The translations under genes and the position numbers were made by a program. Shown one piece after another: positions 31,542 to 48,863 of a stretch of 64,000 bases of DNA. Under the pieces are notes generated by a model. It saw nothing but the letters and a program-made list of their open reading frames with translations, ran no database searches and was not told the DNA's origin. This DNA comes from a bacterium (GTDB lineage: Bacteria > UBA10199 > 2-02-FULL-44-16 > DYJF01), in NCBI GenBank assembly GCA_041739675.1, contig JBGSNL010000003.1, positions 5,846-69,845 of the forward strand, given 5' to 3'. Numbering within the stretch: position 1 is the first letter of the stretch; every line of letters begins with the position of its first letter.

Positions 31542-31712
31542 ATGCAAATTACACGCAGACAATTCGGGCTGGCGATGGTCCTTGGAGCTTTGGCATTGGC
31601 ACTTTCAAGGATGTTCGGATTTCTTTTCCATAAGAGACCGGCTGACAGGGAAGTTTCGGGCGGAGGATACCCCGCCAAATACTGGAAACGCGCGGATCAT
31701 TTGGGCGGATAG
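31542..31712 (+). CDS. 56-codon small ORF encoding a twin-arginine-type signal peptide (leader/uORF or 5' duplication remnant)
   Basis: GGAGGTG RBS 4 nt before the ATG. MQITRRQFGLAMVLGALALALS is Tat-like (TRRQF followed by an h-region). Ends 20 nt before the Memo-AMMECR1 start. Confidence 0.3.
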   Translation: MQITRRQFGLAMVLGALALALSRMFGFLFHKRPADREVSGGGYPAKYWKRADHLGG

Positions 31713-31731
31713 TGTAAGCAAAGGGGGCGCC

Positions 31732-33210: not shown

Positions 33211-35031
33211 CTATTGCGCTGTGCCCAGTTTCTGCCGGATGGAAGTGATCATTCCCGATATCTCTGCGTCCTGTTGCATGTCGGCGGGCATCAGTTGAAA
33301 CATGCTTTCAAAGAATTGCTTTGTGAAGTCGGAGGGTCTTCCATTAAGCGTAAATCCGTCGGCGACTACATGTAACGCTTCAGTAGCAGTATTTCTTTTT
33401 CCCAGAATCCAATCTATGCTTGATGTTATGAATAAAAATTCAATTTTAGAGATATCAAAAAATGTTTCGTCGCCAAAAGTCTTTACCAATGGATTTCCCA
33501 TCCATTTTTTAACTATGTAAACCGTCAAATTGTGTTGCACGTCATTGCGGTTTTCAGACTTCAATTGGAGACAGTGAGCGAGATCATTTATTGCCATGCT
33601 CAAATTCCCCTTTTGTAACCAGATAGTGCCACGGACAAAAAAGTAGTTTGAAGATGAGTAGATGTCGATGGCTTGTGTGCAAAAGTCTATTGCATCATCT
33701 AATGAATTCATTTGCCGCGAAATATTGCTAAGGGCGAGAAGTGCGTTAGCATTCATGTCATCCAACAGAATTGCCGTGCGCGCAGCATCTTCGGCTGCTG
33801 CTAAATTGTTATCTTGCACCAATAGGCAAGCTGAATTTGAATAAAATATGCTTAATGCTTGGCGCAATGCTAGAGGGAAATTTTTGCGATATTGCGCATC
33901 GCTTTGATAAAATATTGGATCAAAGAGACGTCGTTGATTATCAAGTTGCAGGCTGATGCAGAAATGATTGAAATCCGGATTGGATTTTGTCGCTCTCTCA
34001 AGTAGGGTGTTAGATCGTGTTCTGAGGCTTTCAGGGCCATCTAACAACGCGACGTCTTCCACTCCAAGACTTACCTGAAGAAATATGGGGTTGAGCCCAG
34101 CAGTTTCAAATACCGAAAAAAGGATCTTGGAGACCTCTGAACAATCTCCCTCGGTCCTATTAATGGCTTCTAGTGCCGTGTATTCCACCTCATTATATTT
34201 CGGACGCAGGCCGCCTCGACGCACGAGAAAATTTGCGAATTCTCCGAATTCAAATTTATTCAGTTCTTCGTTGGCGTAAAGCAAAAAATCCGGATTCAGT
34301 GTGGACAAGCCGGCAGGAGGAGTCGTTGTAAGCCAAAAAAGACCAAAGGCAAGCCGCTTTTTATATTCCTCCGTTCCTTCTACAAAGCCCTTTCTTGTTA
34401 TGATATCCTTTAGCAGGTTGATTGCGTCTGTCACTTTCGTTTGAATATCTTCATCAAAAGTTGTTTCCGGATTCAAGTCGTCGAGCACCCACGGGAGGGG
34501 ATGGCCAAGTGTGGCCTCTATGAGATTTCGAAAACGCTCATAGTTGTTCATGGCATATTCAAAGACCTCTTGAGAATCTATTTTCAGGTCATTGGCCCCT
34601 TTGATGCAGGATTTTTCTTCCTGTGACGCACAATATTTGCCGTCGAAATTTATGACATTGTAACCTTTATCAATATCACTTTGCGCAACCCCTTCTCTCA
34701 AAAGACCCTGATATAATTTGTATGCCTGCGGATTGTCCGACTCCTCAAAATTTAACGTTATCCTCGGAGCGGACGGCTCGCTTCCTTTATTTGTACAACC
34801 CGCTCCGAAAAGCATGAAGGGCCAGCCGAAAACTATTGCGGGGAGCATTGCTGGTTTTTCAGCATAGAAATCATAAACAGTTTTTACTCCATCAACGATT
34901 GCGCCCGGCGCAGCATCAACGGTTTCTTTTGCCGTCTCCGCTATGGTTTCAAGATCCGTGCAGTAATCGCCTATGCACGCCTCGTAATTGAATGGATTTA
35001 GGTCGCTCCAGCTGATGCCGCCAGAATACAT
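33211..35031 (-). CDS. Family member A: conserved N-terminal module (MYSGGISWSDLNPFNYEACIGDYCTDLETIAE), an internal hydrophobic segment and TPR-like repeats
   Basis: RBS GGAGGAAAC then ATG. 32-residue N-terminal near-identity with the 42247-44529 protein. No Sec signal. TPR-like C-terminal half. Visibly more A/T-rich than its neighbours. Confidence 0.6.
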   Translation of the reverse strand: MYSGGISWSDLNPFNYEACIGDYCTDLETIAETAKETVDAAPGAIVDGVKTVYDFYAEKPAMLPAIVFGWPFMLFGAGCTNKGSEPSAPRITLNFEESDNPQAYKLYQGLLREGVAQSDIDKGYNVINFDGKYCASQEEKSCIKGANDLKIDSQEVFEYAMNNYERFRNLIEATLGHPLPWVLDDLNPETTFDEDIQTKVTDAINLLKDIITRKGFVEGTEEYKKRLAFGLFWLTTTPPAGLSTLNPDFLLYANEELNKFEFGEFANFLVRRGGLRPKYNEVEYTALEAINRTEGDCSEVSKILFSVFETAGLNPIFLQVSLGVEDVALLDGPESLRTRSNTLLERATKSNPDFNHFCISLQLDNQRRLFDPIFYQSDAQYRKNFPLALRQALSIFYSNSACLLVQDNNLAAAEDAARTAILLDDMNANALLALSNISRQMNSLDDAIDFCTQAIDIYSSSNYFFVRGTIWLQKGNLSMAINDLAHCLQLKSENRNDVQHNLTVYIVKKWMGNPLVKTFGDETFFDISKIEFLFITSSIDWILGKRNTATEALHVVADGFTLNGRPSDFTKQFFESMFQLMPADMQQDAEISGMITSIRQKLGTAQ

Positions 35032-35104
35032 GTTTCCTCCTGTCAATCCTGTCAGGGATAGGTCATATCTAATTGATCGGGCGATGTATAGAGGAAATTG
35101 GGCC

Positions 35105-35141
35105 AAAAAAAAGGCCACTTGGTTGCCCAAGCGGCCCTTTT
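35105..35141 (-). terminator. Bidirectional Rho-independent terminator between the BNR lipoprotein gene and gene A
   Basis: 10 bp stem GGCCACTTGG / CCAAGCGGCC with loop TTGC. A-run on one side and T-run on the other. Confidence 0.65.
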
Positions 35142-35155
35142 TGGTTTCATTTCAA

Positions 35156-37753
35156 TTAGTGCGTTATTATCATCGGACTCAATGGCCTTGTCATGACTCT
35201 GAATGAGCTCGAAGGTTCAGTCGGCGTTTCCTCCGATGTCGGCGGAGCGGCCCCAACATCCACGCCACCCATGGTAGAACCGTCTCCGACTGCAGAGACT
35301 TTGTAGGTCACCTTAGCACCGGAAACAGTTGCTGCGATGGCGACGCTTCTCACTTCGCCCAGGTCAACCGCTTCGGGTGAATTGAGTACCGACCAGAACT
35401 CTCCGCCGTTGCGTGTGACCGCCATGCCAGTCGCTGTTCCTGCGAGAACGACCGGTCCGGTCTCATCCTGATTGTAAGCGGGATCGATTGCCAGTGATAG
35501 AACTGGGCCGGCAAGAGTCCCGGTTGTTTTCGTCCAGTTTGCGCTATCTTTATTGCTCACGTATACGCCGTCATCGGTTCCTGCGAAGAGCATGTCCGAC
35601 TTGGCGTCATAGGCGATGCTGTACACCGGTTGCGTACCGTCAAGCGCTCCACCTACAAACTGTGCCCAGCCTATTCCATTGCCGCTTTCGTTGACGTAGA
35701 CTCCACTGTTGGTTGCGGCGAAGATTTTTGTTCCGACTTCTTCCAAGTCATGCGCAACCTTTGAACCGTCTCTCGAATAGACGCCGTTCGTATCTTGATT
35801 TCTTGCCCCGATCCACGGTGTTCGCACTCTGTCCGCCGCGTGCTTGGCGGCATCCTCGGTAACGAGTATTCCGCGGTCATAGGCAACGATCAGGCGGCCG
35901 TCTTCTTTTGCTATCATGTCGCAAATCTGCCCCATCGAAACGATGTCGGCTGAGCTTGGTGCGTTGGAGATGCCGGTCTGTGTCTTGCCCGCGCACGTCT
36001 TATGGCTGCCCGAATATCCATCTCTCCTTGCGTAGAAGAAGATGTCGAACGGTTTCCAATCGCTGTCTTTTTCTCCTCCATTAGTTGTATACATGATGAG
36101 ACCGGTTGTGCCTACGTAAACAACGTTCGGATCGCCCTTTTTCACCGCGATGGCGTTCACGGGATAGGTTTTCACATAATTTGAGAAGAAATTGTTGTTC
36201 TGCCAGAGACCTCCGAGTTCAAAGGCATTCTTTATCGGATCCTCTATGCCGATGCCGTCCGCAAGTTCCTTGCTATCGGCAAAATTGCTCAGGCGATATA
36301 CTGAAATTTCACCGAATGCTTCGCGTTTCACGCCGTAATAGAAACGGCTTGCATCATTGGGATCGGCTATGACGCGTGTCACGGGCAATGCGTCACCAAC
36401 ACCGCCATGGAAGAACTGATGGCTCATCATCGGGATGATGCTCTGGATAGGATGTTGTGTCTCGGGAGTAGAAATTCCGATACGATTAATGACAATCGGG
36501 ATTCCCGACAAATCCGGGACCCTTGCTTTCACCTTTGTTCCTGCGACGAGATCTGCCTTATTAACGGCCTTACCGCCAACCGTGAGAGAGTCGATTCCGC
36601 TCACCGTTGCGGCGTCAGCCTGCACTTCAATCTCAACTTCTTCGGAGACGAAAGCCCACGGGCCGGCCTTGATGTCGAGGGCTGTCGTGTTGCCGCTCTG
36701 AAGGGCTACGACGACTGCGGCGCGGGCGCTATTCTCGCCCACCTGAGCGATCATGTCGAAGCGTGTATCAGAGGTCAGCGTGCAGAGGCTGTCCTGCATT
36801 CCGCCGGTCAAAACCTGTGCGGTCGGGAGCGCGGGCTCGCACGTCACGGGCTTGTCTGCTGTTACAGTCACCTGTGCACTTGCGGGGATCGCTTCATAAT
36901 GGACCGTTACTTGATCGGTGAAATTTGGAACCGTCACCAACGCTTCTTGTCCGTTGGCAGTGATCGTCGCTCTGATGTTGGATGCGTTGACCTGAATCGT
37001 GACGTCGTCGGTCTTTTCCTGACCGTCGGCGCATATGGCCTCAACAGTGTATTTCGTCGTCGCGGAAGGCGTCACCGTAGCTTCGCCTGACGTCGGGAAC
37101 GTATCGGCAACCGGCGTTCCGTCAGCTGCCACAACAGTTACCTGCGTCACGTCCGGACTTGCCGTCCATGTGATCGTCGTCGGGTCGCCGGCATTTACAG
37201 GAGTATCGCCTGCGCCGGATACGATGTCTACCGAACATTCGGATGCCGCAACTACAGCTACTGTAATAGTAGCCTGCGAGGTCACCGGTCCTGTCGGTAC
37301 AGGGTTCTCGGAAGGTGTTGGAACCGGCGGTTCTCCCGGAAGCGGTATCTGACCGGACTTGGACAGTTTGGATATGACGACTATCGCAGCCGCGCTTTCA
37401 TCGGCCGCCGCAAAAGTCTTGGATGCGGTGAGGATAAAGTCCGTCGTGTTCGTTATGCCATCCACCTGTGTGGAGCCCGAAAGCTCTTCAAAGGGGCCGG
37501 CATGGAACTGGAACACACCCTCCGGTGCTGATGCGACCTCTATCGAGTCCGCGTCCTCCACTTCCCAGTAGATCGTCGTGGATCCGCCAAGCGGAACCTG
37601 AGGCGGATCGGCCCTGAAGACCTTGATCACCGGTGGAGGCGGCGTGATATTCGCGCTCTGGCCGAGCTGAAGCTCGCCGTCGGAGCACGCGGCTGCGAAG
37701 GCCGCAATCGCGACCACCGCTATCATCCGCCATATTTTCGTTGTGTTCATCAT
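35156..37753 (-). CDS. Large lipoprotein with Ig-like domains and BNR/Asp-box (Ycf48/sortilin-like) beta-propeller repeats
   Basis: MMNTTKIWRMIAVVAIAAFAAAC is a lipoprotein signal. Repeated S-x-D-x-G-x-x-W-type Asp-box motifs (TNGGEKDSDW, SNKDSANWTK, TRNGGEFWSV). Thr/Val-rich Ig-like repeats. Confidence 0.6.
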   Translation of the reverse strand: MMNTTKIWRMIAVVAIAAFAAACSDGELQLGQSANITPPPPVIKVFRADPPQVPLGGSTTIYWEVEDADSIEVASAPEGVFQFHAGPFEELSGSTQVDGITNTTDFILTASKTFAAADESAAAIVVISKLSKSGQIPLPGEPPVPTPSENPVPTGPVTSQATITVAVVAASECSVDIVSGAGDTPVNAGDPTTITWTASPDVTQVTVVAADGTPVADTFPTSGEATVTPSATTKYTVEAICADGQEKTDDVTIQVNASNIRATITANGQEALVTVPNFTDQVTVHYEAIPASAQVTVTADKPVTCEPALPTAQVLTGGMQDSLCTLTSDTRFDMIAQVGENSARAAVVVALQSGNTTALDIKAGPWAFVSEEVEIEVQADAATVSGIDSLTVGGKAVNKADLVAGTKVKARVPDLSGIPIVINRIGISTPETQHPIQSIIPMMSHQFFHGGVGDALPVTRVIADPNDASRFYYGVKREAFGEISVYRLSNFADSKELADGIGIEDPIKNAFELGGLWQNNNFFSNYVKTYPVNAIAVKKGDPNVVYVGTTGLIMYTTNGGEKDSDWKPFDIFFYARRDGYSGSHKTCAGKTQTGISNAPSSADIVSMGQICDMIAKEDGRLIVAYDRGILVTEDAAKHAADRVRTPWIGARNQDTNGVYSRDGSKVAHDLEEVGTKIFAATNSGVYVNESGNGIGWAQFVGGALDGTQPVYSIAYDAKSDMLFAGTDDGVYVSNKDSANWTKTTGTLAGPVLSLAIDPAYNQDETGPVVLAGTATGMAVTRNGGEFWSVLNSPEAVDLGEVRSVAIAATVSGAKVTYKVSAVGDGSTMGGVDVGAAPPTSEETPTEPSSSFRVMTRPLSPMIITH

Positions 37754-37782
37754 ATCCTAAGCCCCTTTCTTCCTTAGATTGC

Positions 37783-39708
37783 TTATTGACCTATCCCAGG
37801 AAACGTTACTCCAAGTGTTGTAGAAACCGCCCAGTCGAAACCGTATTCTTCACCGGTCATGCTTGCCCCATCTCTCCCCATGAGATCGAGAGCTAACTCG
37901 CCAGTCAGCTTGCTGCCGTCGTCTCCGAATGGCGTTTCAAAACCAAGCTGTAAGCGTCCGACTGGCGAATCGTATCCTCTGTCATCACAGAAGGTATTCC
38001 CAGTGTCGGATTCAGTGAAACACGCATCGCCGTGGTTTCCGTAGTACAACATTGATACACCGGGAATCAGTTTGAATCTATCGGAGATACTGATCGGGAA
38101 ATTGGCGTATGCTTCCATATCGATGCGATACGCTTCGTAAGGCTGAACCGCTCTCCATGCATACGCTGTCAGAAGGTTCAATCCTATGACGACGTTTTCA
38201 TGGACTGTTCCTTCGATTTCAAGTTTTACTCTGACGACACCGGTTGCATCTGCGAGACCATAGCCGCCTACGGAACCCCCGATCGTAAGATCACCGTCTA
38301 AAAGATCTGCGCTTGCACCGACAACTGCGCCGCCGCCGTTTTCGCCGGTAACTGCGTCGGTCGTGGTTGTCACTTCACCGGTCGCCGGATCGGTCGTAGG
38401 GATGAGTCCGATGGATACACTCTGACCGCCGACGGCTTCGGCTGTAAGGGTCACATTATCTGTCACGGGGTATCGCATGCTGACATCCGCTCCGGCGAAT
38501 GATCTGCCGAAGAGCGATACCAGACCGCCGTTAACTCCGACGAATCCGCGCTTCTTGAATACTTCGTTTTCCGTTAAGAAGTAGTTCGCGCCTAAGGCAA
38601 GGTCCGTGATGTTGGCGGAATCGGATATTCCGTTGACAAGCTGGAGCAGTGCAATATCTTCGCTAGTAACCCTGTAATCCTGAGATCCCGCGGCCTCGAT
38701 TTTCATGCGAAGCAAGTTGATTGCCCAGTCTTTGATTACATAGGCGACGCCGCCGTCGAAGGAGAGCTCGCCTGACCATCCCAGAGAGCCGAAACCGCCC
38801 GATCCGCTTGCTACAAGACGCCAGAGCCAGCTTTCATCGTCATCAAAATTGACGACGCCCGGCATTCCACCCCCTGTGGGCCCTGCCACTACCGGATAGC
38901 GCGCAAGTTCAACGGTAATAATGCTGATTTCGTCTGCGCTGATAACTGTGTCGCCGTCAGTGTCCGAACCGGCTACGGTCACGTTGCTGATATAAGTTGT
39001 AAACAGGCGATTTAAAAGACCTTGCGCATCAAGATTTTCATCCCGCTGAATCTGGTCAATCTGTCCCACTAAGGCATCACCTATGGCCTCTTGGACATCG
39101 GGGTTGTCCTGCAAATTATCAGGCACCTGCGACATTGCGCTTTCATGCAGGCCGATAATTACGTCTCCTGTGGGCCTTCTGTACTGGCGATTTTGAAATG
39201 CTTCGGTGAGAGGATCGACCAGTGCATCTATCCCATTCAGAGTCGATCGCTGGACATTGTAATCCAAGAGATCCTGATTAGCCAAATCTCTCAGTGTCGT
39301 ACCCTCTAATGCCAACTCGCGCGCTTTACCGAACCAAGCTGGATATGTGAATCCTTCAAAGAACGGGATTATCTTGAGCGACTCTGATTGTGCCTGACGA
39401 AGCAAAGCTATATCCAAGCCGTCGACGGCTTGAGCTGTGCACTGATCGGCAGCTGTATATGCCGGATTGGAGTCTTCGCCCGGGTTCAACTGAAATGCGT
39501 ACCGGAGGCATGCCGATGTCGCCGATTCTGTTCCGACCATAACATATGTGTCATAGATACGAAGTTGTGCCGGAGTTAGGTCTTGCACGTTAGTGTCGTA
39601 CAGTCCTTCCACTGTAGTCCGGCACTCGGCGTTTTCCAGACCGCACATAGCAGTCGTTATTTGCCCACGATATTGGCTCTGACTGGTTACTTGTCCACCT
39701 GGCAACAT
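37783..39708 (-). CDS. Family member D: MLPGG N-terminus, beta-rich Gly/Asp-rich protein, no Sec signal
   Basis: RBS AAGGAGGAAAC then ATG, identical to gene A. Begins M-L-P-G-G. 29 nt upstream of the BNR lipoprotein gene. Confidence 0.5.
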   Translation of the reverse strand: MLPGGQVTSQSQYRGQITTAMCGLENAECRTTVEGLYDTNVQDLTPAQLRIYDTYVMVGTESATSACLRYAFQLNPGEDSNPAYTAADQCTAQAVDGLDIALLRQAQSESLKIIPFFEGFTYPAWFGKARELALEGTTLRDLANQDLLDYNVQRSTLNGIDALVDPLTEAFQNRQYRRPTGDVIIGLHESAMSQVPDNLQDNPDVQEAIGDALVGQIDQIQRDENLDAQGLLNRLFTTYISNVTVAGSDTDGDTVISADEISIITVELARYPVVAGPTGGGMPGVVNFDDDESWLWRLVASGSGGFGSLGWSGELSFDGGVAYVIKDWAINLLRMKIEAAGSQDYRVTSEDIALLQLVNGISDSANITDLALGANYFLTENEVFKKRGFVGVNGGLVSLFGRSFAGADVSMRYPVTDNVTLTAEAVGGQSVSIGLIPTTDPATGEVTTTTDAVTGENGGGAVVGASADLLDGDLTIGGSVGGYGLADATGVVRVKLEIEGTVHENVVIGLNLLTAYAWRAVQPYEAYRIDMEAYANFPISISDRFKLIPGVSMLYYGNHGDACFTESDTGNTFCDDRGYDSPVGRLQLGFETPFGDDGSKLTGELALDLMGRDGASMTGEEYGFDWAVSTTLGVTFPGIGQ

Positions 39709-39769
39709 GTTTCCTCCTTAATTTCCCCCGATTCACCTTCAATTCATCTCAATTTGAAAAAACTCCTTC

Positions 39770-39882
39770 ATAATTATCTAGGTATGCATGCGATTCCGTC
39801 ATCCGGTGCTCCATAAGCCATGTCAGCGGGTCCGCCGATTTCAGTCGGGCGTACTCTGATCTCTCTGCACGCCGCTTGTGTC
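39770..39882. repeat. DNA-level repeat, copy 1 (3' end of gene C plus its 3' UTR). Near-identical to 42242-42350.
   Basis: Shares the exact runs GTCAGCGGGTCCGCCGATTTCAGT and GGGCGTACTCTGATCTCTCTGCACGCC and overall high identity with the second copy. Confidence 0.7.
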
Positions 39883-41204
39883 GGTTGCGTCGGTTCAGTC
39901 GGCTGAGTCTGCTGATTCGGCACGCAATGTCCGTGGTCTCTGTGTTCTCCAGGAGGACACGTGCGCGGCGTGGTCGGCCTTACAGGCGGTGTCACAGGCG
40001 GTGTCGGTTCGGTTGCGACCGGCTCTGCGGGAACAAATCCATAGATGCTGTTCATGATCCACTGCACGAGTTCCCTGCGCTCCGGATCGGAAATGAATCC
40101 AAGATATACGTTCATCACAGCATCAGAAGGTCTCTGTTCGGGAAGAGCGCAACTGCTAAAAAGTTTCGCAAGGGCATCGCGTGCTCTTGCAATGTAGGTA
40201 TTGGCGTACTCGGCCTGTCCCGTCGCCTGCGAACTGTTGGCCGCTCTCACATACCATGCGGCCATGACGATGTCGGCCATCTGGTTGTCCTGAAATTTCA
40301 CTGTCGAAGACAGGGCGGTCAGGGCCGCTTTTACCTGAGTTTCATTGAGGCCTTCAACCGGCGCAACTGCGGCCAGGAAGTAATCGATCGGGAAGGTTGC
40401 GGATGTTATCGTGCCGCAAGTCGTCGCACCGAATTTTTTGAATGCTTCCTGAACGGCCGCGATATAGGCGTCCACATTTGTGTTTGCCTCGGCCGCAAAT
40501 GACCATCTGGCCTGCGCGATGTTGCTGTACTCGCCAACGTAATCGAGGACGTCCGGATGCCACGTTGTGACGCCGGAGAGTGTGAGAATGTCGAAGATCT
40601 GTTTCTGTTCGCCGGCGTATCTGGATTCAATGTTGACATTCACGGGAACGCGTTCCGGCGTAAAGTACGTTCCGTCCGCCCACGTATACCACTTGTCGAC
40701 GTGGCACACGTTGTCCATGGTGAAAGGTCCCGTCCATGATTGCGTCATCGTCCAGTCTATTGCGTTGTCCGCCGTGAGACCTTTTTCACGTCCCCACAAA
40801 GAAAGAAGGGATCTGAACGAGGCATTGGTCATTCTTGCGTTGATCTGAATGTCGTTTTGTATGACCTTGCAGTAGCTGTCTTCCGGATTGAAATAAGTTC
40901 TTGGAGCTACGGGAGCTGCAGGAGCCGGTTGAGGCGCCGGAGCTGCTGTTTCCGGTTTTGCTGCGTCTTGTGCGACAAGTGCTACCGTTTCATCATCTTC
41001 ACCGCAGGCCGATGCTACAGCAACGAAACCTGTCACTGGCAAAACAATTTCAGGCGCCAAAATTGCAGCCGCTACCCATGCGGCGGCTCCCAGAGCCGCC
41101 AAGAGGTCTTCAGGATCTTCATGTGAAGCATTGGCATGCAATTGGCCGGTTGCAAAATCGTGTTCCCATTTTACGAGTCCGCCATCAAATCCACCTGAAA
41201 ACAT
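39774..41204 (-). CDS. Family member C: MFSGG N-terminus, internal hydrophobic segment ending VASAC, C-terminal Cys-bracketed motif
   Basis: RBS AAGGAGGAAAT then ATG. C-terminal ACREIRVRPTEIGGPADMAYGAPDDGIACIPR is shared with the 42247-44529 protein. A Pro-rich linker precedes it. Confidence 0.55.
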   Translation of the reverse strand: MFSGGFDGGLVKWEHDFATGQLHANASHEDPEDLLAALGAAAWVAAAILAPEIVLPVTGFVAVASACGEDDETVALVAQDAAKPETAAPAPQPAPAAPVAPRTYFNPEDSYCKVIQNDIQINARMTNASFRSLLSLWGREKGLTADNAIDWTMTQSWTGPFTMDNVCHVDKWYTWADGTYFTPERVPVNVNIESRYAGEQKQIFDILTLSGVTTWHPDVLDYVGEYSNIAQARWSFAAEANTNVDAYIAAVQEAFKKFGATTCGTITSATFPIDYFLAAVAPVEGLNETQVKAALTALSSTVKFQDNQMADIVMAAWYVRAANSSQATGQAEYANTYIARARDALAKLFSSCALPEQRPSDAVMNVYLGFISDPERRELVQWIMNSIYGFVPAEPVATEPTPPVTPPVRPTTPRTCPPGEHRDHGHCVPNQQTQPTEPTQPTQAACREIRVRPTEIGGPADMAYGAPDDGIACIPR

Positions 41205-41397
41205 ATTTCCTCCTTACAAACTAAATAAGCCCGAGGACGCGCTGAATTTCATCGTTACGCTACCCAGTTGCATTATCGGATGACCCCCAAAAATGTTGCG
41301 TCCTTTTTTCTACCATCCCCCTCAATTCGCCCACTTCTTGGTGGGAACCCGCCGAAGTTTCAGTGGCGGGGCCCTCATCCTTATTTTCGTGCGAAAT

Positions 41398-41440
41398 AGA
41401 AAAAAGTTGCGCGGTATTTTTAAGCAATACCGCGCAACTT
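41398..41440 (-). terminator. Rho-independent terminator after gene E (14 bp perfect stem)
   Basis: AAGTTGCGCGGTAT-loop-ATACCGCGCAACTT followed on the minus strand by a U-run. Confidence 0.7.
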
Positions 41441-41466
41441 GTAATACGCTGATATTATTAAGTATT

Positions 41467-42213
41467 TTAGTGCTGTCCTTGTGCCCCTTGGCCTGCTGTC
41501 CACGGCACTTGGAATCCGCGTCCGGTGCCCGCATCGGCTGCAGGAGGAGGAGAAGGAGGAGGTGGCGGCGGCGTGGTCGTCGGACCGCCTTCACTCGAAC
41601 ACCTTTCAGCAGCCCTTTGCCTTGCACACTCGATATCCCCTTGGCATTGTGTAATTTCCGTGGCTGTTGGCTGGCAATTACTAGTAGATGGCGGCTGCTC
41701 GTTCATTTCGCGATGTGAACATCTGTCTTGAATACAAGCCGCGTAATCTTGAACATCCGGTCTTGAACATAATACTGTGTCTGAAGGTGTCGGCACACAT
41801 TCATAATGTGCCTGGCATTCTGTTCCCGCCAGGCCGGCTCGTATGTCGTCAACGGAACAAGGCGGCAACTGTGTGGCAACGTTTTGGCCGCTTAGTCTGT
41901 TTGCAAGCTCGAGCAAGAAGGAGGCAAAAGTATATGTACCGCCCCACAAGTTGATGCCTCCGTTTGATGAGCACATTTCGTTTGATTCAGCGGTGGGGCA
42001 AGTTTTGAATATCGTGTTTGCGATCACATAAGCAAAGCCTTCAAAAATAGCTTTAAGATTTTCCGGCACACGCTGCAGGTTGAGCGTGTAGGTATTGGTC
42101 GTATCCTGTACGCACTGAGTTATCTTGTCTTCAGTCTGCTCATTAGCGCATGCGAGCGAGGTGATTCTATCAAGCGTACTTCCGACATTTTGCGTCTGTC
42201 CTGCTGAAATCAT
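41467..42213 (-). CDS. Family member E: MISAGQ N-terminus, Cys-rich and Pro-rich small protein
   Basis: RBS AAAGGAGG then ATG. M-I-S-A-G fits the family start. Many Cys residues. C-terminal poly-Pro stretch (PPPPPPSPPP). Confidence 0.45.
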   Translation of the reverse strand: MISAGQTQNVGSTLDRITSLACANEQTEDKITQCVQDTTNTYTLNLQRVPENLKAIFEGFAYVIANTIFKTCPTAESNEMCSSNGGINLWGGTYTFASFLLELANRLSGQNVATQLPPCSVDDIRAGLAGTECQAHYECVPTPSDTVLCSRPDVQDYAACIQDRCSHREMNEQPPSTSNCQPTATEITQCQGDIECARQRAAERCSSEGGPTTTPPPPPPSPPPAADAGTGRGFQVPWTAGQGAQGQH

Positions 42214-42241
42214 AAGGCCTCCTTTTGAAGCGTTGTTCAAT

Positions 42242-42350
42242 ATAAATTATCTGGGTACACAAGCAATGCCGTCATTTGGCTCTCCATAAGCTCTGTCAGC
42301 GGGTCCGCCGATTTCAGTTGGGCGTACTCTGATCTCTCTGCACGCCGGAG
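42242..42350. repeat. DNA-level repeat, copy 2 (3' end of gene B plus its 3' UTR). Near-identical to 39770-39882.
   Basis: Same exact runs as copy 1. Conservation extends past the stop codon into the AATTAT-rich 3' flank. Confidence 0.7.
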
Positions 42351-44529
42351 GCGGAGGAGGTGGTGGTGCTACGACTATCTTGCAATTATCGTCACAATTC
42401 GGAGTGCCGTCGCATTCCTCGCCGCGTTCCACTCTGCCGTTGCCGCATTCGATGGTAGGCGGTGGAACCGCATTCCTTGTGCAATCGTTTCTGCAGCCGT
42501 CGTTGTTATTTGTATTTCCGTCGTCGCACTGCTCGCGTCCTTCCACAACATGATCGCCGCACCTGATCGTGTGCACAGGCTCACCTTGAGGTGTCACGCA
42601 CGAACCGGCTAAACCCGTCGTCGTCGCCTGTCCGTCGGGGCACGGTTCGCAGCTGCAATCTTCCGGATTGAGCACTTGCGGCGGTGTGTTCTGGCTGAAG
42701 CACCACTCTGCGGCAGTCATCTGCATGTTGCACTGCTGCGTAGCCTCAACGAACATCCTGGCAGGGCTCTGCTCATGGCAGCACTCTCCCGGCGTGACAA
42801 CATGCGGCTGCCTTATGCGGTCTCGCAACGTTTCTTCTCCATGTATCGGCTGTCCACCCAGCGGCCAGAAGTCGAAGGCGATTCCGTCATTCATCTTCTG
42901 GATGTATTCAAGCAGAAGGCGTGACCAGTAGTGGTCATCGGCGCAGGTGGGGCAACGATCATACGAGCGTTGTACCGCACCGTTGATCTCCTTTAGTATC
43001 TCCGTCCTGATCGTCTCTTTGGTTTCACCCGCGCGGCGCCAGATATAATCGTTGGCGTATTGGCGGATGGACATCCTCATGTCGAGCCCCGTCGCTGGAT
43101 CGGCAAAGCCTCCCATGACGAGAATGATGTTGTCCTGCTCGTCCAACTCGACCCACCACTCGCCCGTGTCTATCTTGCCCGTGCTGTCCGCGTTTGACAG
43201 TTCGTCCCAGCGCATGTGGTAAATGGCGGCTGTCTGGAAATACAAAGATGCGGCATGGCCCGCCAAAGGTGTAGCCCAATCAATACGGTTGGACTGCGCG
43301 CGGCCCGGAGTTCCCCAATCGATGTCCCGCCAGGTGAAATCGAAGTCGAACTTATGCATATCGGGGTATTTGACCCCGGCGGCTGCGGTCATATTCATTA
43401 GCACAAGCTCGTATCTTTGGACCGCGTCGGGGTTGTTGTTAGAAAGGTCGGTCATAAGCACGGAGACTTCGTTCATCCTATTCCTGATATCATCTTGTAT
43501 TTGACCTATTAAAACATCATCCGCTTCAATGATAGTCTGGTCTTTCCCATCACTTACATCTTTCTCTCTTTTGGCGACGGCTTCTTCAAGTTTCTTGAAG
43601 AGGTCTTGGAGGTTGAAAGGCAAGCGCCGGAGGTTATCTTCCAGCGCATATTCCAGCGGCGTCCTGGGCAGAGTATAATCTGGTTCGAAGAATTTCTTGA
43701 AATCCTCAAGGAAGGCGGCGCGAACGTCGGGATAACGCGATGACACCAGCAGATTTGCAGTGTGGTTGAGATACTCCGTGGCCTCTACGAGATTCGGGGG
43801 CCAGAAAAACCAGCCGGGTATTGCGCTGGTGAGCCTTGTCGCCTCCATCAGTTTTATGATGGACCATACTCTCGAATCATCGTCATTGAGACCGTTTGAA
43901 AAACTCCAGAAAGAGGCGGGCGTGTCCGACCACGTCCAGAAGCCGTCGGTTTCAAGGATGTTGCGTCCGCATATGACGTCTTTGTGATCGGGGTTGTAGA
44001 TGCGCCACGCATTAAAGGAACAAGTATCTTGCGCCCCGAAAAAGCCCGTAAAGTTGCCGGGGTGGTCGGAGCAGATAATTCCACCGTGCACCATCGAGCC
44101 CCAGAATTCGAAAGACTCCTGGCTTCCGCGCGAGCGACATGCGCCGAGGTCCTCGTCGTAATAATCAGTGAGCGATTTGTCGGCAAGCTCATCATAGTTG
44201 ACATAGTCCTCTCTCAGATATTTCCTTTCAGCGAGAGGCGTTGTCTCTTTTCTGGGGTCGGGCGTGGGGATTTCGTTGCCGCCACAGCCCGCGCCTAAAA
44301 TACTGAGCGCCACTTTTCCGATCGCACGCTCCGGCGCTGTAAAATTATCGACGAAATTCCCAAGTGGATCGTCGCTCGTGACGTACGCCTCTTCCAACGC
44401 TTCACGAAAGAAATTGTTGGCTGCGGAGTACTGTTCGGCAACTGTGTCCAAACTGGTACAGTAGTCACCTATGCACGCTTCATAATTGAACGGATTAAAG
44501 TCGCTTAATGAAATGCCCCCTGAAAACAT
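42247..44529 (-). CDS. Family member B: conserved N-terminal module, Myxococcus-type cysteine-rich repeats and the C-terminal Cys-bracketed motif
   Basis: RBS AGGAGGCAAC then ATG. MFSGGISLSDFNPFNYEACIGDYCTSLDTVAE matches gene A. C-terminal region has CGDHVVEGREQCDDGN...DGC and CGNGRVERGEECDG repeats. The last 31 aa match gene C. Confidence 0.6.
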   Translation of the reverse strand: MFSGGISLSDFNPFNYEACIGDYCTSLDTVAEQYSAANNFFREALEEAYVTSDDPLGNFVDNFTAPERAIGKVALSILGAGCGGNEIPTPDPRKETTPLAERKYLREDYVNYDELADKSLTDYYDEDLGACRSRGSQESFEFWGSMVHGGIICSDHPGNFTGFFGAQDTCSFNAWRIYNPDHKDVICGRNILETDGFWTWSDTPASFWSFSNGLNDDDSRVWSIIKLMEATRLTSAIPGWFFWPPNLVEATEYLNHTANLLVSSRYPDVRAAFLEDFKKFFEPDYTLPRTPLEYALEDNLRRLPFNLQDLFKKLEEAVAKREKDVSDGKDQTIIEADDVLIGQIQDDIRNRMNEVSVLMTDLSNNNPDAVQRYELVLMNMTAAAGVKYPDMHKFDFDFTWRDIDWGTPGRAQSNRIDWATPLAGHAASLYFQTAAIYHMRWDELSNADSTGKIDTGEWWVELDEQDNIILVMGGFADPATGLDMRMSIRQYANDYIWRRAGETKETIRTEILKEINGAVQRSYDRCPTCADDHYWSRLLLEYIQKMNDGIAFDFWPLGGQPIHGEETLRDRIRQPHVVTPGECCHEQSPARMFVEATQQCNMQMTAAEWCFSQNTPPQVLNPEDCSCEPCPDGQATTTGLAGSCVTPQGEPVHTIRCGDHVVEGREQCDDGNTNNNDGCRNDCTRNAVPPPTIECGNGRVERGEECDGTPNCDDNCKIVVAPPPPPPPACREIRVRPTEIGGPADRAYGEPNDGIACVPR

Positions 44530-44726
44530 GTTGCCTCCTAATCAAGGTCGTTGTTTTAATTGACCTCAACCCCTTATCGCGGTTTTTCAAAAATAGTTGC
44601 TTGGTTTTTTAAGGTACCCTGAGAGGCCCGTTTATCAATAAGAATAGGGGTATGGCAAGCCGGAAAAGAGCTTTATTGCTTATTGGCGGAAAGTCTGCTA
44701 GGGAGCCCCCAACAATCGGAGGTAAA

Positions 44727-46127
44727 ATGAAGCCCGATATCAATGAGTTAGTAAGCGCGCATCAGGGAAGGCAGTGGGAGCTTTTTGGAAAATACGTCAA
44801 TCCGCAGCTCGCCTGCGTCGTCAAAACAATAGGTTTCAACCGCAACTATGTCCGTGCCGACGGGCCCTTTCTATATGATGAAGAAGGAACAGAGTATCTG
44901 GATTTTCTGGCGGGCTACGGCGTCTACAACATGGGGCGGAACAACAAGACGATAAAAGAAGAATTGCACAAGGCCCTCGACGCAAACTGGCCCAACATGG
45001 TGCAGATGGACACGCCGCTTCTCGCGGGACTTCTGGCGGAGAGACTTTTGTCGGTGGTGAATCAGTCGGGTGAAAGGCTGGACACCGTTTTTTTCACGAA
45101 CTCCGGAACTGAGGCGAACGAGGGCGCGATAAAATTCGCGCGCAAGGCGACGGGCCGCCCGCGCATCCTATTCTGGGAACACGCGTTTCACGGCCTGACC
45201 ACCGGCTCGCTGGCGCTCAACGGCAACAAGGAATTCAAAAAAGGATTCGGCGATCTGCTTCCGGGCTGCATGCCTATTCCCTTCAACGATCTTTCCGCGC
45301 TTGAGAATGAGTTGAAGAAAAAAGACTGCGCGGCATTTATCATTGAAGCAGTTCAGGGCAAGGGTGTCTACGTTGCCGATCCTCAATTTTACACAGAAGC
45401 GCAAAATCTCTGCCGCAAATACGGTACGCTTTTTGTGATCGACGAGGTGCAGACCGGGTTCGGCCGCACCGGCAAATGGTTCGCCCATCATCATTGGGGG
45501 CTGTCGCCCGATATCGTCACCGTGGCAAAGGCGCTCTCCGGCGGCTACATCCCCGTGGGCGCGATCTGCTTCAGACGCGAGATCTACGACAAGGTATTCA
45601 ACGGAATGGAGCAGTGCGTGGTCCACTCCAACACTTTCGGACGCAACGTGCTTGCGATGACCGCGGGGCTCGCATCGATAGATTACATGGAAAAAGAGGG
45701 AGTCATCGAGAACGCGGCACGCATGGGCGAAAAAATCGTGACGGGTCTCCGCGAAATGGCCGGAAGATATGAGATGATAAAAGAGGTGAGGGGGCTGGGG
45801 CTCATGGTTGGAATTGAGTTCGGCGAGCCGAAATCTTTTTCGCTCAAGGCCGGTTGGAAGCTTCTGCACGCGGTGAACAAAGGGCTCTTCGGCCAGATGG
45901 TCGTGGTGCCTTTGATGTGCGATCACCACATACTCACGCAGGTTGCGGGCCACGATGTGGATATCGTAAAACTGTTGCCGCCTCTCATCATCAACGAGTC
46001 TCATGTCGAGCGCTTCCTCACGGCGTTCGATTGCGTCATGAAGGAGTGCCACCGCTTCCCCGGCAACGCATGGACGGTCGGCAAGAGACTTGCGACAGAA
46101 GCACTCAAGGCAAAAAAAGCAATCTAA
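44727..46127 (+). CDS. Class III (PLP-dependent) aminotransferase, ornithine/acetylornithine aminotransferase-like (HpnO-like candidate)
   Basis: GGAGG RBS. Class III motifs FTNSGTEANEGAIKFAR and DEVQTGFGRTG. PLP-Lys context AKALSGG. Confidence 0.8.
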   Translation: MKPDINELVSAHQGRQWELFGKYVNPQLACVVKTIGFNRNYVRADGPFLYDEEGTEYLDFLAGYGVYNMGRNNKTIKEELHKALDANWPNMVQMDTPLLAGLLAERLLSVVNQSGERLDTVFFTNSGTEANEGAIKFARKATGRPRILFWEHAFHGLTTGSLALNGNKEFKKGFGDLLPGCMPIPFNDLSALENELKKKDCAAFIIEAVQGKGVYVADPQFYTEAQNLCRKYGTLFVIDEVQTGFGRTGKWFAHHHWGLSPDIVTVAKALSGGYIPVGAICFRREIYDKVFNGMEQCVVHSNTFGRNVLAMTAGLASIDYMEKEGVIENAARMGEKIVTGLREMAGRYEMIKEVRGLGLMVGIEFGEPKSFSLKAGWKLLHAVNKGLFGQMVVVPLMCDHHILTQVAGHDVDIVKLLPPLIINESHVERFLTAFDCVMKECHRFPGNAWTVGKRLATEALKAKKAI

Positions 46128-46130
46128 TCG

Positions 46131-48863
46131 TTGGCGGCTTGGGGGTTCTTCGCCGATTCTATGCGCACGAGATTTTTCACCTGGCTTGGAAATTTCATAC
46201 CGCGGCACCCGTGGAAGATAGTCGTCACGGCCCTCGTCCTCACGGCGGTCTCCGGGGTGCTCGCGATAACGAGTCTTTCGCTCGACGCCGATCAGGACAA
46301 CCTCATTTCAGAAAAACTTGAGTATCATAAGCGCTACAAGGATTTCCTGCGGGAGTTCGGCGATCAGGAATATCTCTATCTCGTCGTGGAATCGGGCGGC
46401 GACCTTGCCCGCGCAAAAAAATTCGTCAAGTCGGCTGCCGACAGGATTTCGCGTCTGCCCGACATCAGCGAGGTGACGTACAAGATAGACAACCCCGCGT
46501 TAGAGAAAAGTTTTCTGCTTTTGTTGAATCAGGACCAGTTGAGATCTCTGGCCGATATGGTGGGCGGAGGGACCTTTTCGATACAGAGGTTCGCCTCTCT
46601 TTCAAGTCTTGAGGAGCTTTTTTCCGTCATCAATGAAGAGATCCAAAAACCGGTCTCTCCCAAAGAAGAGGAGAAACTGACTTTAGGTTTCAAGTTTTTA
46701 GACGGACTTGTCGGTTCACTGGACAGCGCGGTCACAAACGGCACGCCCTACGAATCTCAGCTGGAGAATCTCTTTTTCGGCGAGGGGAGCTTCGATCCCG
46801 AAGGCTACCTCGTCACAAAAAACAAAAAATTTCTCATCTGCCTCATAATGCCCGCAAAAAATTATGGAACGCTCGCGGTCATCGAAGAGCCGCTTAAGAG
46901 AATCAGAAACGCGATTGAAGAGACAAGATGGGAGTTTCCGGGAATCAAAGCCGGCCTGACGGGCAGGCCCGTTCTGGCAGCGGACGAAATGGCCACGTCA
47001 AACCGTGACATGAACATGGCTACGATACTTTCTCTGATCGCGGTGGCCGTGGTCTTCATAATCGCCTTTCGGAGTGCGGCGCGCCCACTGCTTGCAATGG
47101 CGGCCCTTGTCATGGGGATCGCCTGGACATACGGGTTCGTGACCGTTGCATTCGGGACCTTGAATCTTCTCTCCATAGTATTTGCGATCATACTTGTGGG
47201 CGCATCGATTGAATACGGCATCCACGTCGTCGCAAGATATCAGGAGGAGCTCTCGCGCCACAGAAACATCGACGAGGCGGTGAAAAGAATGCTTCTGGCG
47301 ATAGGCAAAGCCGATCTCACCAGTGCCGCGACAACGGCGGGAGCGTTCGCCACGCTTCTCTTCACGAACTTTCGCGCGTTAAAGCAGCTGGGCGCCATTG
47401 CGGGCATGGGCATTGTATTCTGTGTTTCCGCCATGCTCTTTGTTCTGCCCGCGCTTCTCGTGATCAGGGACCACAAACTGTACGGTGACAGGAAAATGCC
47501 GGCGTGGGCAAAGCCCAAGCCAGCAATGCAGGTGACGGCCATCACGAAGCTTTACCGCCGCCCCGCGTTCCTGCTTGCAGGCGCTGCAATCGTCACGATT
47601 GCGTTATCCCCCTTCGTTCGAAAGATTTTTTTCGATTTCAATCTTTTAAATCTCCAGGCCAAGGGGATCGAGTCCGTCGAATACGAACGGAAGCTAATCA
47701 CGGAATCGGATGAATCGACATGGTTCGCGAACGCCGTTGCGAAAACACCGGAGGAGTCCGCAAAGCTTGCCGAAAAATTCAGAAAACTTCCGGTGGTGAA
47801 AAAGGTGGAGGATATAACATCCATCGTCCCGCTCGATCAGAAGGCGAGGATGTTTCTCATAAGAAGGATGGCGCCGGCGTTTGAAAATATAAAAGGCATA
47901 AAATTCGATGGCGGCAATGTGCCGGTCGACGCAGCGACGCTGGCAAGGCAGATATCGTCATTCGACAGCTCGCTCAGCCGTCTTGAGGAGGAGGCCTTTT
48001 CCGCCGGACGCATAGATGCTGTTGAGGAGCTTGAAGGATTCAGGGACAGGGTTTCAAAACTGGCGCGTGATATCGAAGCGGCGCCTGAGGCGTCATTTCG
48101 CATCGCTGAATTCGAAAAGGCCTTTTTCGGCGATCTCCACGACAAACTTGATCTTCTCGCCTCCGGTATGCACCCTGCGCCCTTGAAAATAGGGGATATG
48201 CCGCCCGCGATCCAGCGAAGGTTCATAAGCCCCAAAGGGAATTACGCGATATACATAACGCCCGCTGAGGACATCTGGAACGAGGAGAGTCTCAAGCGTT
48301 TTGTCACGGAGATAAGAAAAGTCGATCCGCTTGTTCTGGGAACGCCGATAGAAGTTTACGAATCGGGACGGATCATGGTCCGCGCGTTTCTGATCTCCGG
48401 CGTGCTTGCGTTCATAGTCATCTACATGCTGGCGCTCATAGACTTCAAGTCCATCAGGGCGGCGGCGATGGCGACAATGCCGCTTTTTTTAGGCGGCCTC
48501 TGGCTCGTTTCGATCATGGGGCTTTTTGGGATCCCTTTCAATCTGGCGAACTTTTTTGCTATTCCAATCATAATAGGAGTGGGCGTGGACAGCGGCGTCC
48601 ATATCATCCATCGTCTGAAGCAGGAGCGTGAGCTTCCCGCCCTGGGCCGTGCAACGGGAACGTCTGTTTTGCTCACCGCCGCCACAAACGCGATAGGGTT
48701 CGGAATGATGATGATTGCGGCTCACAGGGGGATAGCGAGTTTAGGAATGATCATGGCGATCGGGACCATCTGCTGTGCGGTTGCAGCACTTCTTGTCATG
48801 CCGCCGATCGCATGGAGATTTTTGGGTTTTCATGATGAAAAATCCCGAGGGGGGATAAAATGA
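46131..48863 (+). CDS. MMPL/RND-superfamily lipid exporter (HpnN-like candidate)
   Basis: Two-lobed architecture: each lobe has an N-terminal TM helix, a large periplasmic domain and a cluster of five or more TM helices. About 910 aa. Confidence 0.7.
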   Translation: MAAWGFFADSMRTRFFTWLGNFIPRHPWKIVVTALVLTAVSGVLAITSLSLDADQDNLISEKLEYHKRYKDFLREFGDQEYLYLVVESGGDLARAKKFVKSAADRISRLPDISEVTYKIDNPALEKSFLLLLNQDQLRSLADMVGGGTFSIQRFASLSSLEELFSVINEEIQKPVSPKEEEKLTLGFKFLDGLVGSLDSAVTNGTPYESQLENLFFGEGSFDPEGYLVTKNKKFLICLIMPAKNYGTLAVIEEPLKRIRNAIEETRWEFPGIKAGLTGRPVLAADEMATSNRDMNMATILSLIAVAVVFIIAFRSAARPLLAMAALVMGIAWTYGFVTVAFGTLNLLSIVFAIILVGASIEYGIHVVARYQEELSRHRNIDEAVKRMLLAIGKADLTSAATTAGAFATLLFTNFRALKQLGAIAGMGIVFCVSAMLFVLPALLVIRDHKLYGDRKMPAWAKPKPAMQVTAITKLYRRPAFLLAGAAIVTIALSPFVRKIFFDFNLLNLQAKGIESVEYERKLITESDESTWFANAVAKTPEESAKLAEKFRKLPVVKKVEDITSIVPLDQKARMFLIRRMAPAFENIKGIKFDGGNVPVDAATLARQISSFDSSLSRLEEEAFSAGRIDAVEELEGFRDRVSKLARDIEAAPEASFRIAEFEKAFFGDLHDKLDLLASGMHPAPLKIGDMPPAIQRRFISPKGNYAIYITPAEDIWNEESLKRFVTEIRKVDPLVLGTPIEVYESGRIMVRAFLISGVLAFIVIYMLALIDFKSIRAAAMATMPLFLGGLWLVSIMGLFGIPFNLANFFAIPIIIGVGVDSGVHIIHRLKQERELPALGRATGTSVLLTAATNAIGFGMMMIAAHRGIASLGMIMAIGTICCAVAALLVMPPIAWRFLGFHDEKSRGGIK

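Follow-up and report, generated by a model that had tools for sequence, protein, structure and literature searches.

In a 64,000-nt stretch of contig JBGSNL010000003.1 (hereafter the window), from an uncultured, Bdellovibrio-like bacterium of the UBA10199 lineage, genes B and C of a six-gene operon encode two otherwise unrelated proteins that end in nearly the same 32 residues, a tail bracketed by two cysteines. The tail has the look of an interchangeable label, for addressing or for docking, of a type not previously described, and we think it on balance probable that it acts as a docking or sorting peptide, tethered by a flexible linker and read by a partner common to both proteins. The tail can be regarded as a label for a common reader because it is shared within a genome, because such tails are replaced in concert between genomes, because a flexible tether precedes it, and because it has been under purifying selection. 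That the C-terminus might serve as a recognition tag, for sorting, anchoring, or the binding of a partner, had been raised in the original prediction, and this idea now gains comparative support from matching tails in related loci.

A peptide-length repeat with uneven divergence

The near-identical Cys-bracketed tail, and the Pro-rich linker said to precede it in both proteins, are borne out. Underlying the tail is a 103-nt direct repeat (39772-39874 and 42245-42347; 87% identical), which encodes the final 32 residues and the stop codon of each gene. On the minus strand, gene C ends in ACREIRVRPTEIGGPADMAYGAPDDGIACIPR (residues 445-476, 39777-39872; stop codon 39774-39776) and gene B in ACREIRVRPTEIGGPADRAYGEPNDGIACVPR (residues 729-760, 42250-42345; stop codon 42247-42249), with 28/32 residues identical. 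The tails end in ..ACVPR and ..ACIPR, with net charges of 0 and -1. The two copies lie 2.47 kb apart, and their longest exact runs measure 28 and 25 nt, where 27 and 24 nt had first been read. Six-frame motif scans and tblastn found no third copy of the tail within the window, in which the only other repeat family of at least 40 nt is a single 42-nt pair of 74% identity.

The borders of the repeat coincide with the borders of the peptide, which makes the peptide the unit of similarity. The onset falls exactly at the Ala-Cys codons; immediately upstream, the Pro/Thr/Gln-rich linker of C (QQTQPTEPTQPTQA, 39873-39914, minus strand) and the poly-Pro linker of B (PPPPPPP, 42346-42366, minus strand) are unrelated in sequence. 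Past the stop codon the copies share only 2 nt, or at most 4 when a 3-nt gap is allowed (AATTATCT, read on the other strand, is AGA-TAA-TT); the earlier suggestion that the repeat reaches into the 3' untranslated region is therefore not supported. Outside the tail, B and C have only an MFSGG start in common.

Within the repeat, synonymous divergence (dS) is strikingly uneven. Codons 1-17 (ACREIRVRPTEIGGPAD) hold one synonymous difference (proportion of synonymous differences, pS, 0.08; 98% nucleotide identity), whereas codons 18-32 have a pS of 0.71, a nonsynonymous counterpart (pN) of 0.13, and 73% nucleotide identity. Fisher tests separate one half of the tail from the other (p=0.002) and the first half from an N-terminal module that B shares with gene E (p=7e-7). 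Codon choice follows the same line: at 16 of the first 17 positions both copies use the same codon, where the codon usage of the window predicts 6.0 (P=4e-7), while codons 18-32 (5/11 same codon, 4.1 expected) and the B/E module (10/25, 9.8 expected) are both at expectation. That module, residues 1-32 of B and of E, agrees with the original prediction of an N-terminal block conserved solely at the protein level (81% amino acid identity, 71% nucleotide identity, and synonymous sites saturated at a pS of 0.94).

The near-identical DNA core is confined to 54 nt (39821-39874 in C, aligned with 42294-42347 in B, both on the minus strand; one mismatch), and its 5' edge is the start of the tail. Such a stretch was either recently made identical or else is constrained at the nucleotide level. 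The best explanation is a short tract of gene conversion, which probably homogenized the first ~54 nt of both copies recently, and the 5' edge of the putative tract sits where homology ends. Since codons 18-32 combine a pS of 0.71 with a pN of 0.13, the tail peptide itself is old and under purifying selection. Of the gene conversion or duplication originally suggested, conversion is thus retained for the 5' ~54 nt only, whereas recent duplication of the whole cassette is contradicted by the 3' half, which is saturated at synonymous sites. Read in this manner, the uneven dS would illustrate, neatly and on a small scale, how gene conversion over a short tract can come on top of ancient, selected similarity.

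Tails shared within loci and switched between them

An exhaustive HMMER search with C through 1.84 billion representative proteins recovered eight distant homologs (P0005-P0012; 24-46% identity over the core), and the tail itself matched only B in this search, which would miss copies below ~60% identity but is the strongest evidence to hand against a close copy elsewhere. The contigs of these homologs, together with one GTDB genome match (L006, "MAG: Bdellovibrio sp. isolate FI88_57_8"), carry the same operon, which is conserved in a few Bdellovibrio-like metagenomic genomes. The L006 ortholog of B is 40% identical over 648 aa (E 1e-143), and locus L012 keeps the whole neighborhood, with GidA, deoxyhypusine synthase, MMPL, and aminotransferase genes on one side and Memo/AMMECR1 on the other. 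Peptide-pattern scans with the tail alignment, run on genome and metagenome contig collections that evidently do not include the genome of the window itself, gave no relatives; searches with full-length B and with a profile returned only B itself and P0012, from a candidate list probably swamped by low-complexity words.

In five of these loci at least two operon proteins have matching C-terminal tails after a flexible linker. The sharing involves a B-like and a C-like protein in four of the five; in the fifth (L001), a C-like protein shares its tail with an adjacent small gene. What differs from locus to locus is the type of tail, which may be a Cys-bracketed loop, GF.VPWTAG, or [IV][IV]R.PF.D. 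In L006 the B-like protein ends in ..VVEVVRNPFADK and the C-like protein in ..AEVVRNPFAD, and in L012 three operon proteins carry GVIVRDPFADNSGN, PTIREPFTK.., and TPIVRPAFD. The B-like and C-like tails are CPATPTSTQWQSWTDEQKDNYRQLREACQGK and CPPVPTATQWQSWSEAQKSAYKNERNECQGN in L007, and GHGFQVPWTAGHGG and GRGFSVPWTAGQQKK in L003, to be set beside GRGFQVPWTAGQGAQGQH at the end of B2 in the window. In L001 the C-like protein has CGAEPTISNAEYNVPEKKSAYREALTKWKTCTGK and the adjacent 75-aa gene CGKEPEITNADYNVRARREAYQKAHAKWKACIGK, with the consensus CG.EP.I.NA.YNV..AY...WK.C.GK. Every tail is preceded by a linker rich in Pro, Gly, Lys, or Gln, and in all DNA examined the tails are confined to genes of the operon.

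Shuffling supports the contrast between sharing and switching: the two within-locus pairs tested (L001 and L007) are similar at p<0.0005, versus p values of 0.01-0.85 for tail comparisons between loci. The shared tails of other loci have pS values of 0.39-0.72, saturated or strongly diverged at synonymous sites, so their peptide similarity has been kept by selection and not by recent copying. Three tails unrelated in sequence have the architecture of the window tail, namely Cys, 26-30 residues, Cys, and then three residues. Homology of the window loop with the Cys-bracketed tails of L001, L007, and P0010 was considered and found not significant (p 0.01-0.85); only the architecture recurs.

A second tail type is present in the window itself. 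Gene B2 (248 aa, beginning MISAGQ; 41467-42213, minus strand) bears a different linker-tethered tail, GRGFQVPWTAGQ.., at 41470-41523 after a PPPPPPSPPP linker. The same type stands on the B-like and C-like proteins of L003 (595-633 and 2359-2400).

The proteins of the operon diverge far more than their neighbors. When the operon (window 33211-44529) was compared with its flank (44652-48863) across L004, L006, and L012, flanking genes were 70-81% identical between loci (aminotransferase 77-81%, MMPL 70-77%) versus 16-49% for operon proteins (D 49%, E 41%, B 40%, C2 16-24%). The operon therefore evolves unusually fast, a pattern that would be expected of exposed, co-evolving components.

Possible roles of the tail

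The role we favor is that of a module that works as a peptide, a short label at the C-terminus, held on a flexible linker rich in Pro and carried by two otherwise unrelated and probably lipid-anchored envelope proteins. The label would dock or sort both B and C to one common partner; because both proteins must fit that partner, their tails would stay alike within a genome and be replaced together between genomes. A recent short conversion tract over the first ~54 nt would then overlie an old, selected similarity. The partner is most plausibly encoded in the operon, as barrel-like C2, beta-propeller lipoprotein D, or TPR lipoprotein E. Because the proteins probably lie outside the cytoplasm and the Cys pair is conserved, one can suppose that the two cysteines close a 27-residue loop by a disulfide, either in the periplasm or outside the cell. 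An extracytoplasmic location of B, C, and E is itself plausible, given the lipobox-like [IL].G[AGS]GC motifs conserved in these proteins and their orthologs and, in B, Cys repeats of the disulfide type. The repeat and its limits, the uneven dS, the sharing of tails within loci and their switching between loci, and the lack of any known domain or transmembrane segment are observations; that the proteins are exported, that the disulfide forms, that the tail docks, and which protein it docks to are what we infer.

Candidate partner C2 (641 aa, beginning MLPGGQ; 37783-39708, minus strand) lies directly downstream of C and has a strand-rich C-terminal third, ending in ..LGVTFPGIGQ, that resembles an outer-membrane barrel. 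Orthologs of C2 were located in L012 (11720-14791) and L001 (1611-4307); the C2-like proteins contain paired cysteines, and their C-termini are rich in strands and end like outer-membrane barrels (..LGVTFPGIGQ, ..FAIGFTFSGVPK, ..GGVAHWK), and no hydrophobic signal sequence was found in their first 140 residues. Candidate D (865 aa; 35156-37753, minus strand) combines a classical lipoprotein signal with a BNR/Ycf48-like beta-propeller region. Candidate E (606 aa from the ATG at 35031; 33211-35031, minus strand) has a lipobox-like ..LFGAGC and TPR repeats.

Explanations at the level of DNA can be envisioned for the repeat. The near-identical ~54-66 nt might be kept for a nucleotide-level function, as an mRNA element or as an internal promoter for B2 and C2, with the peptide similarity secondary, although this seems to us very unlikely. 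Each copy is predicted to form two small hairpins (GGCGUGC..GUACGCC and UCGGCG-GACC-CGCUGA) within the identical stretch, but the fold z-scores are not distinctive (-0.83 and -2.0 for the 70-nt core; 0.13 and -2.0 for 141 nt), and Rfam 15 gave no match at the gathering score over the window and none at E<=1 over either copy. A 3' RNA element, as originally proposed, accordingly finds no footing in z-scores of -0.8 to -2.0, in Rfam, or in a similarity that stops 2-4 nt past the stop codon. Both copies do contain a sigma-70-like ATGACG-18-GATAAT (39773-39802 and 42246-42275, minus strand), whose -10 hexamer runs from the final Arg codon across the stop codon to the base that follows it, upstream of the starts of C2 and B2, which have strong ribosome-binding sites and lie 33-65 nt downstream. 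This promoter match is, however, 9/12 and falls in the diverged half, and 15 such sites occur in the region against 9.5 +/- 3.3 expected from shuffles, which is no enrichment; moreover, the tails of other loci are saturated at synonymous sites, which shows the peptide to be the selected unit. Harder still to credit is that one gene simply received its 3' cassette from the other, by recent duplication or transfer and with no function implied. Such an origin fits the spacing of the two copies (2.47 kb), their sharp borders, and their 87% identity, and two copies are all that can be detected, the situation in which the original prediction would have settled for such a duplication had dS equaled the background. 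But dS is uneven, the pS of 0.71 and pN of 0.13 in the 3' 15 codons point to a divergence that is old and was held in check by purifying selection, and other genomes repeat this architecture with tails of other types; simple recent duplication is already largely refuted by the heterogeneity in dS.

Other explanations accept the peptide as the unit but assign it another role. The tail might be a degenerate last copy of a family of 4-Cys repeats, its two middle cysteines lost, forming a structural cap to a stalk with no part in addressing; B and C would then share a tail since both carry the repeat family. This repeat (~45 aa, T.EDCL.K.P.GTHVLN...[DE]C.PC....T..G..C), apparently undescribed and without a Pfam or NCBIfam model, is present 1-4 times ahead of the linker and tail in B-like and C-like proteins. 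The copy in B (42589-42678) is bona fide, at 33 bits against a hidden Markov model (HMM) of 16 repeats, and MAFFT sets the tail under the last 4-Cys repeat (AAC..PTEI with AADCL..GTHIL; DDGIACIPR with RDGLKCVGR), with a DG[IL].C[IV].R ending found in the L006 B protein as well. The tails themselves nevertheless score 2.3 and 3.6 bits against the repeat HMM, values matched by 26/500 and 14/500 shuffles, and pairwise scores of tail against repeats reach p=0.06-0.07. The tail is also set off by the linker instead of being contiguous with the repeats, and the sharing of non-Cys tails within loci (VVRNPFAD, GF.VPWTAG) would be left unexplained, so that we judge a repeat cap unlikely. By analogy with sortase substrates, the tail might instead be a processing or maturation signal that lacks a membrane span, with a dedicated protease or transpeptidase recognizing it and then cutting it off or cross-linking it. 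Several proteins per genome bearing one tail, at the extreme C-terminus after linkers, is the logic behind the discovery of known sorting signals (Haft 2023, doi 10.1101/2023.06.07.544157), and the Cys at the start of Cys-type tails is invariant. Against such a role, the tails end in VPR or IPR with neither a hydrophobic segment (maximum Kyte-Doolittle mean over 19 residues -0.18 in B and 0.45 in C) nor a basic, Arg-rich C-terminal cluster in either; no NCBIfam sorting-signal model matches; and no sortase-, exosortase-, rhombosortase-, or CPBP-like gene was found in the operon or among the window open reading frames scanned (a subset of them), among which protein-secretion families were likewise without a match. 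Maturation of this sort strikes us as improbable.

Several points also weigh against a docking label. In L004/L005 the B-like protein ends in ..KRPDPFKPL and the C-like protein in the Cys-bracketed ESCRSPTPNEIADGATGLICTKKGK, and in the window genome two tail classes coexist, the GFQVPWTAG of B2 and the Cys loop. AF2 gives no confident model of the tail (pLDDT ~30 over C residues 429-476). C2-like proteins, P0007, and P0010 are without a recognizable signal peptide, which leaves the export route, and with it the disulfide, putative. The eight related loci lie mostly on short contigs and include two complete operons only, too few to relate the type of tail to the sequence of a partner; and two sequences cannot separate conversion from nucleotide-level constraint in the repeat.

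The suggestion that the motif might belong to a known domain finds nothing in its favor. No Pfam, NCBIfam, or PDB match covers the tail, whether in Pfam and NCBIfam searches with B and C, with the isolated 33-aa tail in NCBIfam to E<=1, or in PDB sequence searches with B, C, and C2. The myxo_disulf_rpt (TIGR02232)/DUF4215 match in B is limited to residues 656-684, and C has none, so neither touches the tail. A literature search on the tail motif and on Bdellovibrio C-terminal sorting signals turned up nothing relevant except Haft 2023 (doi 10.1101/2023.06.07.544157), which describes tripartite signals composed of a motif, a hydrophobic segment of transmembrane length, and an Arg-rich basic cluster. 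Lacking the hydrophobic segment, the tail is not a signal of the PEP-CTERM/MYXO-CTERM type, and of the defining features examined for described C-terminal tail families it has none.

Resemblances to known systems are therefore partial. Like MYXO-CTERM and its relatives (Haft 2023), the tail is a short domain at the extreme C-terminus, with a conserved Cys, on unrelated envelope proteins, and the lineage of the window also uses the "myxo" cysteine-rich repeat; unlike MYXO-CTERM, the tail has two cysteines 27 residues apart and no membrane-spanning segment, Arg cluster, or HMM match, there is no cognate intramembrane protease in its neighborhood, and its bearers all belong to one operon, where MYXO-CTERM marks dozens of proteins. 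Docking peptides whose receptors are TPR or beta-propeller proteins, such as those bound by TPR clamps or the outer-membrane-protein beta-signal read by BamD, are likewise short, linker-tethered, and C-terminal, and TPR lipoprotein E and beta-propeller lipoprotein D in the same operon parallel their receptors, a likeness of logic only. The tail differs from the beta-signal in ending in Arg (..DGIAC[VI]PR), with no terminal aromatic residue or alternating hydrophobic pattern. The C-terminal domain of the type IX secretion system (T9SS) of Bacteroidota also marks otherwise unrelated, Sec-exported cargo, there to be read by an outer-membrane machine. That domain is folded and about 70-100 residues long, whereas the tail has 32 residues, is Gly/Pro-rich, has no confident AF2 fold, and matches neither TIGR04183 nor Pfam. 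Type IV pilins, too, finish in a disulfide-bonded loop, the D-region, which serves in interaction and assembly and recalls the Cys-bracketed loop described here; unlike pilins, B and C have no prepilin leader, conserved N-terminal hydrophobic helix, or pilin fold, their N-termini are of the form M-[FIL]-x-G-G, and the locus is without pilus genes.

The operon and a possible two-ended address

Genes B, B2, C, C2, D, and E run head to tail on the minus strand. A strong intrinsic terminator sits immediately behind B2 (41404-41440, minus strand; a 15-bp stem, 7 of its pairs GC, and then a T-run) and splits the genes into two units, B-B2 and C-C2-D-E. In protein clustering, B, B2, C, and C2 are each singletons. 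Gene B (760 aa; 42247-44529, minus strand) encodes the N-terminal MFSGG module, a large domain of unknown function, Cys repeats, the linker, and the tail. Its lipobox-like ..ILGAGC occupies residues 72-82, and its Cys repeats comprise one 4-Cys repeat of the family (residues 618-647), one significant myxo_disulf_rpt/DUF4215 match (residues 656-684), and after it a second, similar Cys-rich stretch read by eye. Gene C (476 aa; 39774-41204, minus strand) passes from MFSGG through a hydrophobic stretch to ..VASAC, then a helical core, a degenerate Cys segment, the linker, and the tail; the core (~280 aa) is confident in AF2 and has no specific fold relative. In B, C, and E the lipobox-like ..[IL].G[AS]GC or ..ASAC follows a short hydrophobic stretch, ahead of which lies a long acidic N-terminal extension. 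Next to the operon is a gene for a fused Memo-like/AMMECR1 protein (539 aa; 31582-33201, plus strand), a layout repeated in L012.

The starts of these proteins are also alike. Five of the six operon genes begin with M-[FILY]-[SP]-[GA]-G: MFSGG in B (44515-44529), MISAG in B2 (42199-42213), MFSGG in C (41190-41204), MLPGG in C2 (39694-39708), and MYSGG in E (35017-35031). D alone, with its classical lipoprotein signal, is without this motif. Similar starts (MFAGG, MIAGG, MLSGG, MKSGG, and others) stand on most operon genes of L001, L003, L004-L007, L011, and L012, with deviating ones in P0008 (MPNPL) and P0012 (MSGPS). The codons of the motif vary, and its conservation is at the protein level. 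No known N-terminal signal of such a form was found, and the literature on MFSGG yielded nothing relevant. In B (44434-44529) and E (34936-35031), which are otherwise unrelated, the start opens the common 32-aa module M[FY]SGGIS.SD.NPFNYEACIGDYCT.L[DE]T[VI]AE; the L006 ortholog of B has a more divergent version. This module matches within the genome, as the C-terminal tail does.

A broader and more tentative possibility is that the operon belongs to an undescribed two-ended addressing system of Bdellovibrio-like bacteria, in which M-[FIL]-x-G-G starts mark nearly every protein, and the interchangeable tethered C-terminal tails of the cargo-like ones would be read by a dedicated C2/D/E receptor or assembly machine. 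On the N-terminal side, some operon proteins have the longer shared module and the unusual extended lipoprotein signal. Within such a fast-evolving surface complex, tail classes and receptor might change as one, the tails serving as specificity cassettes.

Short C-terminal tails on unrelated proteins have repeatedly led to new sorting machineries, including those of sortase, exosortase, rhombosortase, myxosortase, and T9SS. The genomic signature here is the same, with a tail shared within a genome and replaced in concert between genomes, minus the transmembrane and basic parts of the known classes, and it appears in an unannotated operon whose divergence far outpaces that of its neighbors, within a barely sampled lineage that has bacterial predators among its relatives. 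Should the tails prove to be docking labels, the operon would offer a compact, testable system for envelope-protein addressing and for the co-evolution of labels and receptors.

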